From an uncultured candidate division WWE3 bacterium (lineage in GTDB: Bacteria > Patescibacteriota > WWE3 > UBA101185 > UBA10185), in the NCBI GenBank assembly GCA_903879985.1, contig CAIRNR010000007.1, forward strand, positions 346,880 through 410,879: a stretch of 64,000 bases of DNA, given 5' to 3'. Made by a program: the position numbers. This document shows, piece by piece, positions 51,001 through 54,000 of the stretch. Positions within the stretch are counted from its first letter, which is position 1, and each line of letters opens with the position of its first letter.

Positions 51001-54000
51001 CGAGTGGTATTTGAGGACATTGTTCACGCGCCATATCAACATATTGTTTTTTAGTGGAAATATAAATATCCGTCGCAGGAAAAGCTTGAAGCAATGTCTT
51101 AACATTGTATTGAAAAGGAGTTTCGTTACCGGGCAGTACCGGCTGAAACTGCTTAGGAGATTTTTCTCTACTTAATGGCCAAAGTTTTGTTCCTTGACCA
51201 CCAGCAGTGATGATTAATTTCATAGTTTATTTTAGGCTTGCGGCGTTTGGGGCATGCTTGGTGTTGCTGGAGCTACTGGAGTGGCTACAACAGGCATTTT
51301 TTTATTTTTAACCATAAATAGGTAAAGTATCGCGCAAGGAAAATTCACAACAAGCAACAAAACTATCCAAAGAACTTTATCTTTAAAATCTCTTTTTAAA
51401 CAGTCAATAAACATCCATAGCCAAAAGATTCCGTAGGCAAAACAAATAAGTCCGATAATTCCAGCAAAGATAAAGATAGGACCGGCTTGCGCCCACATTT
51501 GATCGCAAGGGATGTCTTCACCGTTAACAGTACATTGAGCAAACGTTGGAACTACAACTAAGGCTAAAGGCAATATCGCTAATATGTTTTTTGTTAATTT
51601 TTTAAGCATACTTAAATATTATTCTGTATACCTGTAGGGTCAATGGTTTTGGCGGAGAAGGAGGGATTCGAACCCTCGATACCTTGCGGTATGGCGGTTT
51701 AGTAAACCGCTGCACTCGGCCACTATGCGACTTCTCCATGCACGTGCAACACCGCTATTTTAGCACAAAACCCTGGTACTCTTGAACTAAACCTGCAATT
51801 TTATCCGCGGGCTGCCTATACTTTTCAATCAACGCACGGTTTTGGTCATTATTCTTCAAAAATATGTAGGCGTAGTTATCTGCAAAAACTAAAGTCCAAT
51901 TTGTATCCAACAATCTGGTTAAAACAAACTTCTTCATGGAAGTATCGGCATTAATTACTATTACGTTAAACTTAAATTTAGCATCGAGGGCATTCCAGTT
52001 GGCTGTATTTCCATCTATAAGTGGCAAGTAATTGTCACGATAAAACTCCAAAGAATATGCCTCAGGACGATTGTCGGTATAAACTTTTTGGAAATCACTT
52101 ATGTAGTAAATTAGATAACTACCAACATTGTAGTCGTTAAACAAGGGACCTTGGATATTGTTATCAACGTAAAAGTGTCCGGCATCCTCAACGTTTGGCA
52201 TTAAGCCAATGCCAAAATCTTTCTTAAGTGGAAGCATAACCAACAAAGAAAGCACTAGCAAAAACGGTGCAGTATTTTTAACATATTCTCCTAGCTTTTT
52301 TGGCAAAGCTCCCATGTACAAAACCACGTTGAAGTAAAGGATAATACCGAAAAGCGGGATCATTCGGGACATTACAAGGGAAAACAACGAAAATATTATC
52401 AATAAAAATTGGTATGAAATATCTTTAAACTTATTTTTAGAAAAAAACTTTAAGAAAAAAGACAAAACTCCCGAAACAAAAAATCCAAATAAAAGACAAT
52501 TTTCAAAACTATTAAGCCTGAGTGGATTATTTTCGTCGGGCTTTATTGCATATCTTTCCCGAACTACATTTAACGGGACAACTAAAGTTTTGTAACCGTT
52601 AGGATTTATAAAGGAAATAGCAAACAAAATTCCAATCAAGAGTAATAGTTTTTTAGCAGTTTCTTTATCTTTATTTAAATATGCCTCAACCGCAAACGCT
52701 CCCGCGATTAGAAAAGAAAAAACAAAATAGTTGTGGAGATTAACCCAAAACAATTGCATAACGCCAAACAAAACGTAGTGATAACACTCCATTTTTTTTG
52801 AAACTTTACTCAACATAAATATGTAAATGACGAAAAAAAGATTGGTAAAAAGCTCAGGACGAACTTCGGTACGCAAAGATATCACCGGCAAAAGTAACAT
52901 CAGCAAAAATAAAGCTAAAGGCGTTTTTAATCTTTCGCGGCCAAATTGGAAAAGAATATACACGAAAATCCCACTCACAACAGCATAAAAAATAGATAAC
53001 GCCGGAAAAGAACCAAGTTTGTAAATTAAGAAAAAAACTACGCCGGTAAGCCAGTGATGATTTATAAAATTATAAGCTGGATCTGTATATGAATAATAAT
53101 TTGTACTAAGCACCGCAAGTTTTTGATTCCAGCTACCGAGTACAATATTTTCTCCGTTTTTTATATGCCTGCCAAGATCAGCATATTGAAAGTTAATCTT
53201 TTGCATGAAAAACAACGAGAAATAGACAATTAGTATTGTGGGTAAGATGTATTTTTTTGCAAAGTCTTTTATCATGAAAGCTCGTTGCGTTGGCGTTTTG
53301 GCCACACCACCAATTTTAAAAAAATTGGCGGAGGGAGAGGGATTCGGTCACCGGTTCTCGCTTGCTAGCGCGACCGTCGACCCCGGCTCGGCACCGTCGT
53401 GCCTACGCCTTTCTCATCCCACATACTTCAACTATAAAATTTGTCCATCACAAAAGTGTTGGCCAAATTCCATGGCGGAGGGAGAGGGATTCGAACCCTC
53501 GGGTGACTTGCGCCACGCATGGTTTTCGAGACCAGCCCGGTATGACCACTTCGGTATCCCTCCATAGTGTTACGAAAATACCGATTTCAAGCCCTATTTT
53601 AACAGCTTCACTGCACTAACGCTATCTCGTTAAACAATTATGGGATAAATTAATATTACTTTAGCGAGGTATTTAGAGGCCCATCATTTACAAGTATTTG
53701 CGAGCTTTTTACTTCTGGAAACTGCGTTACAGTTCTTTCTATTTGAGCTACAAATCTTAGGTCGTCACACTCGCCGCCTAAAAGCTTTTGACCTGTTATT
53801 TTAACAACGGCAACACCGTCGGTAACAGTAACACTAGCTACTGCAAGCTTTGATTGATACAAAGAATCGTACATACCACCTTTACCAAATTCACTATCTG
53901 TTATAGAAAACAAATCATTTAAGGCCATTTTTATATTGGCTTCGACATCATTGGTAACAATACTGCTTGTACTGGCTGCAACGACACTATCTCCACAACC

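Follow-up and report, generated by a model that had tools for sequence, protein, structure and literature searches.

The DNA analyzed here, hereafter the window, is a stretch of 64,000 nucleotides from an uncultured candidate division WWE3 bacterium (contig CAIRNR010000007.1, positions 346,880 to 410,879 of the forward strand), and it carries a gene for a serine tRNA whose anticodon, ACU, starts with adenosine (A34) (Table 1). Read along the minus strand, the gene consists of a 7-bp acceptor stem (GGAGAAG/CTTCTCC) followed by G73 and CCA, a D stem (GCAT/GTGC) placed after a TC linker, an anticodon arm (GCGGT-TTACTAA-ACCGC) with a 5-bp stem and a 7-nt loop that holds U33 and A37, a variable arm (C-ATACC-GCAA-GGTAT-C) with a 5-bp helix and a GCAA loop, and a canonical T arm (GAGGG-TTCGAAT-CCCTC). 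An earlier note on this DNA had described a complete type-II tRNA with the anticodon ACU at this position, and every feature that it listed is present by ARAGORN, by Rfam, and in the sequence itself, with ARAGORN returning the same fold and the same anticodon. The general tRNA models recognize the gene as a type-II cloverleaf with a long paired variable arm, and its score with the Rfam model RF00005 (54.2 bits, gathering score 29) is level with that of the GCU and GGA serine tRNAs of the window (55.8 bits). The predicted folding energy is -34.3 kcal/mol (RNAfold, z = -3.4). The same note had named pseudogene scoring and sequencing error as grounds on which the gene might be dismissed. The former is at odds with the Rfam score and the intact, covarying stems, and an error of sequencing or assembly is ruled out by five independent assembly loci from different samples (JGI, NCBI GCA_903994745.1, and three from ENA), which match the window at 99.95-100% identity, each of them reading ACT.

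The serine identity elements of Escherichia coli include G73, G1-C72, G2-C71, A3-U70, and C11-G24, and the ACU tRNA has this entire set together with a long variable arm. Of the ten window tRNA genes called by ARAGORN, four are serine isoacceptors, and G1, G2, A3, G4, C11, and the 3'-terminal G-C-C-A are invariant among these four. The canonical tRNA-Ser(GCU) that the note had reported alongside the ACU gene is one of them. It shares the serine acceptor end with the ACU tRNA and differs from it in the acceptor stem, the D arm, and the variable arm. The D arm of the ACU tRNA, TCGCATAGT, is instead held in common with tRNA-Ser(GGA), with the remainder of these two bodies not shared.

Table 1. 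Features of the window discussed in the text, with coordinates on the whole stretch
Feature	Position	Strand	Basis or remark
tRNA-Ser(ACU) gene, 88 nt, type II, G73, encoded CCA	51650-51737	-	ARAGORN, Rfam, fold
Anticodon A34-C35-U36 (AGT on the plus strand), loop U32-U33-ACU-A37-A38	51701-51703	-	Direct reading; ARAGORN gene position 35
Membrane protein gene, function unassigned, open reading frame of 516 amino acids (called as 483)	51755-53305	-	Upstream of the ACU gene
PLDc_N-domain protein gene, 125 amino acids	51232-51609	-	Downstream; start 40 nt past the 3' end of the ACU tRNA
tRNA-Ser(GCU), canonical AGY decoder, body unlike that of the ACU tRNA	62494-62581	-	ARAGORN, Rfam
tRNA-Ser(GGA)	49517-49607	-	ARAGORN; part of a conserved Ser/Ala/Arg tRNA neighborhood
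tRNA-Ser(CGA)	53473-53563	-	ARAGORN; same neighborhood by synteny
tRNA-Arg(GCG), G34 where bacteria usually have an A34/I34 Arg tRNA	58987-59062	-	ARAGORN
tRNA-Ala(CGC)	56629-56704	-	ARAGORN; beside Arg(GCG)

Comparison with related loci contradicts the suggestion, also made in the note, that the gene is a recent point mutant of a GCU gene. Among the serine tRNAs of these loci, the closest to the window ACU tRNA are themselves ACU tRNAs, at 97% (locus L202), 95% (L214), and 94% (L187) identity, so that the orthologue comparison that the note had proposed returns ACU genes throughout the 94-97% range; many further ACU tRNAs follow at 84-91%. The differences between orthologues include compensatory changes in the T stem (GAGGG/CCCTC to GTGGG/CCCAC). 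L202 is a marine-biofilm Patescibacteria metagenome-assembled genome (MAG) whose DnaG protein is only ~52% identical to that of the window, and the tRNA set of the window recurs there (Ser-GGA, Ser-CGA, Ala-CGC, Arg-GCG, Ser-ACU, and Ser-GCU), including a GCU gene that is 93% identical to the window GCU gene. Since L202 keeps both genes at this protein distance, the sequences indicate that the ACU/GCU pair is older than the split between the lineage of the window and L202.

The same pattern extends to larger samples. With position 34 masked, we compared 108 distinct ACU and 105 distinct GCU tRNAs, and found that the nearest neighbor was of the own kind for 107 of the 108 ACU tRNAs and for 98 of the 105 GCU tRNAs; the highest ACU/GCU identity anywhere in the 213 sequences was 0.91. 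In viruses, 85 of 100 ACU tRNAs were nearest to another viral ACU tRNA, the best ACU/GCU identity was 0.86, and identity to the best bacterial ACU tRNAs was only ~82%. These comparisons show ACU and GCU tRNAs to be separate, long-lived lineages rather than the product of repeated point mutation. A recent G34A mutation of the window GCU gene in particular was considered and rejected, given the different bodies and the lack of a near-identical GCU twin.

How widely the family occurs was assessed with a pattern consisting of TTACTAA, a gap of 18-32 nt, and GGTTCGAATCC, and the loci were checked with ARAGORN. All scans of sequence collections gave at least 120 matches, and the counts given here refer to the 120 matches listed and not to prevalence across the phylum. 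Among species-representative genomes of GTDB, 87 of the 120 hold a bona fide tRNA-Ser(ACU). By record title, 49 of these 87 loci belong to lineages of the candidate phyla radiation (CPR), namely, Saccharibacteria, Paceibacterota, Microgenomates, Nomura-, Zambryski-, Magasanik-, Levy-, Collier-, Roizman-, and Taylorbacteria, and Minisyncoccia. A further 21 are third-party annotation (TPA) MAGs titled Gammaproteobacteria or Pseudomonadales, 11 carry titles from other phyla and have phage-like tRNA bodies or arrays, and 6 have unclassified or odd titles. Among viral contigs of IMG/VR, the corresponding figure is 114 of 120. In these contigs the gene is accompanied, within tRNA arrays, by U34 tRNAs (Thr-UGU, Glu-UUC, Gln-UUG, Arg-UCU, Lys-UUU, and Ile-UAU), and only 1 of the 114 viral loci listed has both Ser(ACU) and Ser(GCU). 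In a separate set of 114 ACU-bearing loci, by contrast with these viral ones, 53 have a GCU gene nearby.

When the pattern was freed at position 34, the matches listed comprised 19 ACU and 97 GCU tRNAs in viral contigs, and 27 with A34 and 93 with G34 in metagenome contigs with the D-arm type of the window. The metagenome A34 loci are low in GC (mean 0.40), and many of the G34 loci, at 67-71% GC, clearly belong to other phyla. A tRNA-Ser with ACT is also found in the cultured Salmonella phage Munch (MK268344.1, positions 266654-266744), where the public annotation reads simply "tRNA-Ser". BLAST is not selective for the anticodon, and the window tRNA as query mostly recovered GCU tRNAs of cultured phages, such as that of Aeromonas phage Aeh1 (annotated GCU). 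Altogether, tRNA-Ser(ACU) is an old, widespread, and apparently undescribed family, frequent both among Patescibacteria and in the tRNA arrays of phages.

The 21 Gammaproteobacteria- or Pseudomonadales-titled contigs (TPA_asm records L136, L140, L153, L163, L170, L182, L183, L191, L194, L198, L208, L209, L218, L220, L221, L224, L227, L232, L234, L242, and L246) carry tRNA bodies of the CPR type, with Arg-GCG/CCG as neighbors. Four of them encode proteins that match, at 76-84% identity over 139-589 amino acids, those of loci whose titles read Magasanik(i)ibacteria or Patescibacteria, and therefore the organism names of these records look wrong. Identical or near-identical Ser(ACU) genes of the phage type occur in L131, L145, L212, and L229, and also in L152, L168, and L219, in MAG bins titled Planctomycetaceae, Phycisphaerales, and Chitinophaga; L219, titled "Planktophila", has a phage-like array of Glu-UUC, Asn-GUU, Gln-UUG, Thr-UGU, and Lys-UUU. 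Such contigs in bacterial MAGs are probably misbinned phage contigs. Phage arrays (L006-L125 and L370-L470) also yielded other ARAGORN calls with A34: Arg(acg) 29, Thr(agt) 7, Leu(aag) 3, Ile(aat) 2, Gly(acc) 2, Phe(aaa) 1, and Cys(aca) 1.

To characterize selection on the family, 59 distinct bacterial ACU tRNAs were aligned (alignment A2) and base pairs were counted on the cloverleaf. We found that 97.7% of the cells are paired, compared to at most 60% in slid controls, and that changes on both sides occur in 20 of 26 pairs (313 cells), which none of 500 shuffles reached. The helix of the variable arm (helix 4) covaries as well (98.3% paired). In addition, G30-C40 and U31-A39 are invariant in all 59 tRNAs (columns 32-33 and 41-42 of A2), with only the 7-nt loop having been fixed by the pattern; phage ACU copies also use A31-U39. 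These invariant pairs may reflect a constraint on the anticodon arm that is linked to A34. The window tRNA shows the characters of the family throughout: the UU-ACU-AA loop, G30-C40, U31-A39, a short variable arm, a serine acceptor, and ACU tRNAs as its nearest neighbors.

Codon usage and codon meaning bear on what such a tRNA could do. The window contains 239 AGT and 118 AGC codons, and AGA, with 161 codons, is its commonest arginine codon. Aligned to SufS of Bacillus subtilis (57% identity) and MutS of E. coli (42%), arginine is the aligned residue at 7 of 10 AGA codons and at 2 of 3 AGG codons, and serine is the residue most often aligned with AGU (6 of 17 positions). The decoding change that the earlier note had entertained is therefore contradicted, and these alignments indicate that the three codons have their standard meaning, with AGA and AGG still read as arginine. 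As for the anticodon, an orthogonal ACU tRNA in living E. coli decoded AGU at 9.4% and AGG at 0.36%, with AGC and AGA below detection (Schmitt, Tittle and Fisk, PMC11066159), and in E. coli lysate an ACU tRNA performed better at AGU than its GCU version (Cui et al., PMC6158751).

We favor, with a probability of roughly 70%, the interpretation that the gene encodes a functional serine tRNA that is predicted to be an AGU-specific Watson-Crick decoder working beside tRNA-Ser(GCU). SerRS, the seryl-tRNA synthetase, does not use the anticodon for recognition, and would thus charge the ACU tRNA with serine. A34 would remain an unmodified adenosine, as expected in a lineage that uses Arg(GCG) and appears to be without wobble inosine, and on the ribosome it would pair in Watson-Crick geometry with U3 of the codon. 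The ACU tRNA would then be a dedicated decoder of AGU, a codon twice as frequent here as AGC, tRNA-Ser(GCU) would read AGC and back up AGU by G-U wobble, and misreading of the arginine codons AGA and AGG would be negligible. The ACU anticodon would be tolerated because SerRS ignores it. For most other synthetases that serve two-codon NNY boxes, position 34 is an identity element, and for this reason AGY may be the sole box of this kind in which a G34-to-A34 isoacceptor can persist. A34 may be tolerated only here, where a synthetase blind to the anticodon meets a lineage without a wobble-inosine system. The broader proposition, that Patescibacteria and a sizeable share of phages keep a natural split-box tRNA with unmodified A34 as a predicted one-codon decoder of AGU, we rate as an even bet.

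Several observations weigh against this interpretation or limit the support for it. The scan pattern required ACT, such that the constancy of A34 in the aligned set is by construction. The evidence that the family is selectively maintained comes from covariation, separate clustering, and coexistence with GCU, all of which are independent of the pattern. RNAfold on its own pairs U32 with A38 and U33 with A37, and the canonical 7-nt loop is assumed from tRNA architecture; we treat this closure as an in-silico effect because the GCU tRNA has the same loop context. Furthermore, loci L471 and L473 have no Ser-ACU gene within 10 kb on either side of a tRNA neighborhood that is otherwise the same, the order Ser-GCU / Arg-GCG / Ala-CGC / Ser-CGA / Ser-GGA being conserved in L202, L471, and L473. 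The DnaG proteins of L471 and L473 are 46-52% identical to that of the window, and both loci share its gene order of Na/H exchanger, membrane protein, DnaG, and PMT-like glycosyltransferase, with MutS and MutL in addition in L473 and an NTP-transferase in L471. In L202 the ACU gene adjoins GCU and not the membrane-protein gene. Taken together, these loci imply that the ACU gene moves; it is possibly dispensable, and some relatives may lack it. Finally, the AGU:AGC ratio is 2.0-2.1 in the window, L202, L214, and L187 (2.1 for the ACU-bearing relatives) and 1.0-1.8 (1.3 overall) at equal GC in L471-L473, three syntenic or homologous loci without the gene (Fisher p = 0.002), but this contrast comes from small samples and L471-L473 may carry the gene elsewhere in the genome, so that the higher AGU share in ACU-bearing loci is a weak supporting trend.

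Among the alternatives, the one that survives best, although we consider it improbable, is that a TadA-like enzyme converts A34 to inosine, which would make the tRNA an ICU decoder of AGU and AGC, and weakly of AGA, and hence a second general AGY tRNA. Genomically encoded A34 becomes I34 in nearly all known cases (PMC11066159), and TadA-like genes do occur in some metagenome loci with the same D-arm pattern, though only in loci of the GCU type. The loop, however, is UUACUAA, in which U36 departs from the TadA target U33-A34-C35-G36 (UACU and not UACG), and in E. coli no inosine was detected in the orthogonal ACU tRNA, whose anticodon TadA left unmodified (PMC11066159). The canonical TadA substrate appears to be absent: in the separate set of 114 ACU-bearing loci, Arg(gcg) was called 10 times, Arg(ccg) 6 times, and Arg(acg) not once, in line with the report that tRNA-Arg(ACG) is apparently lacking in CPR, which use GCG, and that some deep-branching bacteria are without wobble inosine (Shulgina and Eddy, PMC8629427). 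With AGA as the commonest arginine codon, and still arginine, I34 would also risk Arg-to-Ser errors. No TadA-like tblastn match was found in the window or in ACU-bearing loci, a weaker point that comes from partial sampling with the E. coli and Staphylococcus aureus proteins as queries. Because the lineage uses tRNA-Arg(GCG) and not ACG, formation of wobble inosine at A34 is unlikely, and of the "inosine- or A34-containing decoder" put forward in the earlier note, the A34 form is the one that agrees with a conserved, covarying family.

Many of the loci with the TadA-like genes just mentioned have 67-71% GC and so are not from CPR, and these matches carry no information on the genome of the window. 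On the metagenome contigs L258, L309, L333, L255, L279, L254, and L346 (GC 0.67-0.71), the TadA-like gene is 32-38% identical to E. coli TadA and stands beside Ser(CGA)/Ser(GGA) where the contig is long enough. By ARAGORN, Ser(GCU) is directly beside Arg(GCG) on the same high-GC contigs, not beside Arg(ACG); the combination of TadA and Arg-GCG was unexpected.

A second alternative, to which we give slightly less credence than to inosine, is that A34 carries some other modification or that the tRNA serves mainly for something other than routine decoding, for instance, as a reserve serine tRNA resistant to anticodon-loop nucleases or toxins directed against Ser(GCU). Its enrichment in phage arrays, where it usually replaces GCU, would fit such a role, and the invariance of G30-C40 and U31-A39 in the bacterial copies may mean that the anticodon arm is under some additional constraint. 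In Patescibacteria, however, the ACU tRNA is found alongside GCU among housekeeping genes of the chromosome, and no nuclease acting on tRNA-Ser(GCU) in these hosts is known to us. Moreover, its co-occurrence in phages with U34 tRNAs for A-ending codons points to the logic of codon supply.

That the gene is a non-functional or neutral relic, either a pseudogene or a decaying GCU duplicate, is quite unlikely. This view could draw on its absence at the syntenic position in L471 and L473 and on the fact that no promoter-like site was found between the stop codon of the membrane-protein gene and the tRNA, but it sits poorly with a perfect cloverleaf whose Rfam score equals that of the neighboring serine tRNAs, with orthologues that carry compensatory changes across deep divergence, with the lack of a close GCU twin in the sampled data, and with the identical sequence in five assemblies. 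A change of the genetic code by which AGA and/or AGG, or all AGN codons, would mean serine, as in some animal mitochondria, is hardly credible: that A34 or I34 might reach AGR codons is a formal possibility only, and against it stand the arginine positions in SufS and MutS, compared with non-CPR proteins, the presence of tRNA-Arg(UCU) in phage Ser(ACU) arrays (38 cases of Arg(tct) together with Ser(act) among the matches listed), and the CPR reassignments reported by Codetta, which are UGA to Gly in Gracilibacteria and Absconditabacteria and CGA/CGG to Trp in Absconditabacteria, with none at AGR (PMC8629427).

The predicted AGU decoder can be set against several known systems. Compared to bacterial tRNA-Ser(GCU), it has the same type-II body plan, G73, UU-NCU-AA loop context, codon box, and genome, but has A34 and a separate, old body with a short 5-bp variable arm and tetraloop, and it would be expected to read AGU only, whereas GCU reads both AGU and AGC. 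The standard bacterial A34 tRNA, tRNA-Arg(ACG), which TadA converts to ICG, likewise encodes A34 followed by C35; the window tRNA has U36 in place of G36 and serves a split rather than a four-codon box, and inosine is not expected. Mycoplasma tRNA-Thr(AGU) and yeast mitochondrial tRNA-Arg(ACG) are natural tRNAs with an unmodified A34, which the window tRNA, also from a reduced genome, probably has as well, but they belong to four-codon boxes in reduced tRNA sets and read several codons by "superwobble" (PMC11066159). In contrast, the ACU tRNA occupies a split box next to arginine codons, is part of a full serine isoacceptor set, and is expected to read a single codon. Leu(AAG) and Thr(AGU) of Leuconostocaceae/Oenococcus and some Firmicutes are further A34 isoacceptors (PMC8007984, PMC11066159); these take the place of GNN tRNAs in four-codon boxes, with TadA converting some of them to inosine, whereas ACU stands beside GCU in a two-codon box. 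Engineered orthogonal ACU tRNAs share the anticodon, are AGU-specific, and receive no inosine in E. coli (PMC6158751, PMC11066159), but they are synthetic, with archaeal Tyr or Pyl bodies and other amino acids, whereas the window tRNA is a natural serine tRNA.

The statement of the earlier note that A34 is very rare in bacteria holds with respect to the reviews and needs amendment with respect to serine. ANN anticodons other than Arg-ACG are described as missing in bacteria, those of two-codon boxes as universally missing, and phages likewise (Ehrlich et al., PMC8007984), unmodified A34 tRNAs are called "exceedingly rare" (Schmitt et al., PMC11066159), and the known exceptions, that is, Mycoplasma Thr-AGU, yeast mitochondrial Arg-ACG, and Leuconostocaceae Leu-AAG and Thr-AGU, are all in four-codon boxes (PMC8007984, PMC11066159). 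Ser(ACU), on the other hand, is common in Patescibacteria and phages, and the gene shows that one "universally missing" anticodon is not missing. In a recent tRNA gene survey covering 95 complete Patescibacteria genomes, ACU goes unmentioned in the main text (PMC13011429), and full-text literature searches of incomplete coverage turned up no account of a natural tRNA-Ser(ACU) from bacteria or phages, such that a prior mention is possible.

Why A34 is avoided is a standing question in the field, and the family, if our interpretation is right, would be the first large natural test bed for it. Should A34 prove unmodified, the family would offer a natural and partly culturable system for measuring A34 decoding (Saccharibacteria co-cultures and Salmonella phage Munch), would favor anticodon recognition by synthetases together with TadA, and not the ribosome, as what excludes A34 from other boxes, and would add a phylum-level trait to CPR translation, which would then combine Arg-GCG in place of ACG, Ile-UAU, and Ser-ACU. 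Annotation pipelines and codon-adaptation models assume that AGU is read only by G-U wobble, and the ACU family bears on both.

With regard to its surroundings, the ACU gene begins 17 nt after the stop codon of the membrane-protein gene. Homologues of this protein with an informative source name come mostly from Patescibacteria, Paceibacterota, or similar lineages, the nearest being only 37% identical, and the PLDc_N-domain protein on the other side is recorded in 33 blocks of public assemblies. Genes of the window include DnaG, MutS, MutL, SufB, SufS, and an Na/H exchanger, at a GC content of ~37%; the window is a chromosomal region of a Patescibacteria (CPR) bacterium without close sequenced relatives. 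A prophage or phage origin of the window copy was rejected in view of these housekeeping surroundings, the synteny with relatives, and the identity of only ~82% to the best viral ACU tRNAs, and an ancient transfer of the ACU tRNA between phages and bacteria, in either direction, is conceivable.

The longest reading of the DnaG gene (44035-46074, minus strand) has a TTG start and overlaps by 236 nt an open reading frame of 682 amino acids on the plus strand (45838-47886) that has no Pfam match. The Pfam domains of DnaG begin at residue 88, and therefore the true start is probably further downstream. Nine of the ten window tRNAs are given in the Rfam list at the gathering threshold, from which Ser(CGA) is missing; two short open reading frames on the plus strand (53238-53567 and 53362-53619) overlap this gene and are probably spurious.

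The window also contains a tRNA-Ile(UAU) (4961-5037, minus strand), whose anticodon is another of those described as normally absent from bacteria. The window makes heavy use of AUA (433 codons, 26.6 per thousand), and the two CAU tRNAs of the window resemble elongator Met (1741-1815) and the initiator (2199-2272, with a C1-A72 mismatch), not tRNA-Ile2. Among the matches listed, L161, L196, and L241 as well as 18 phage loci have Ile(UAU) close to Ser(ACU).

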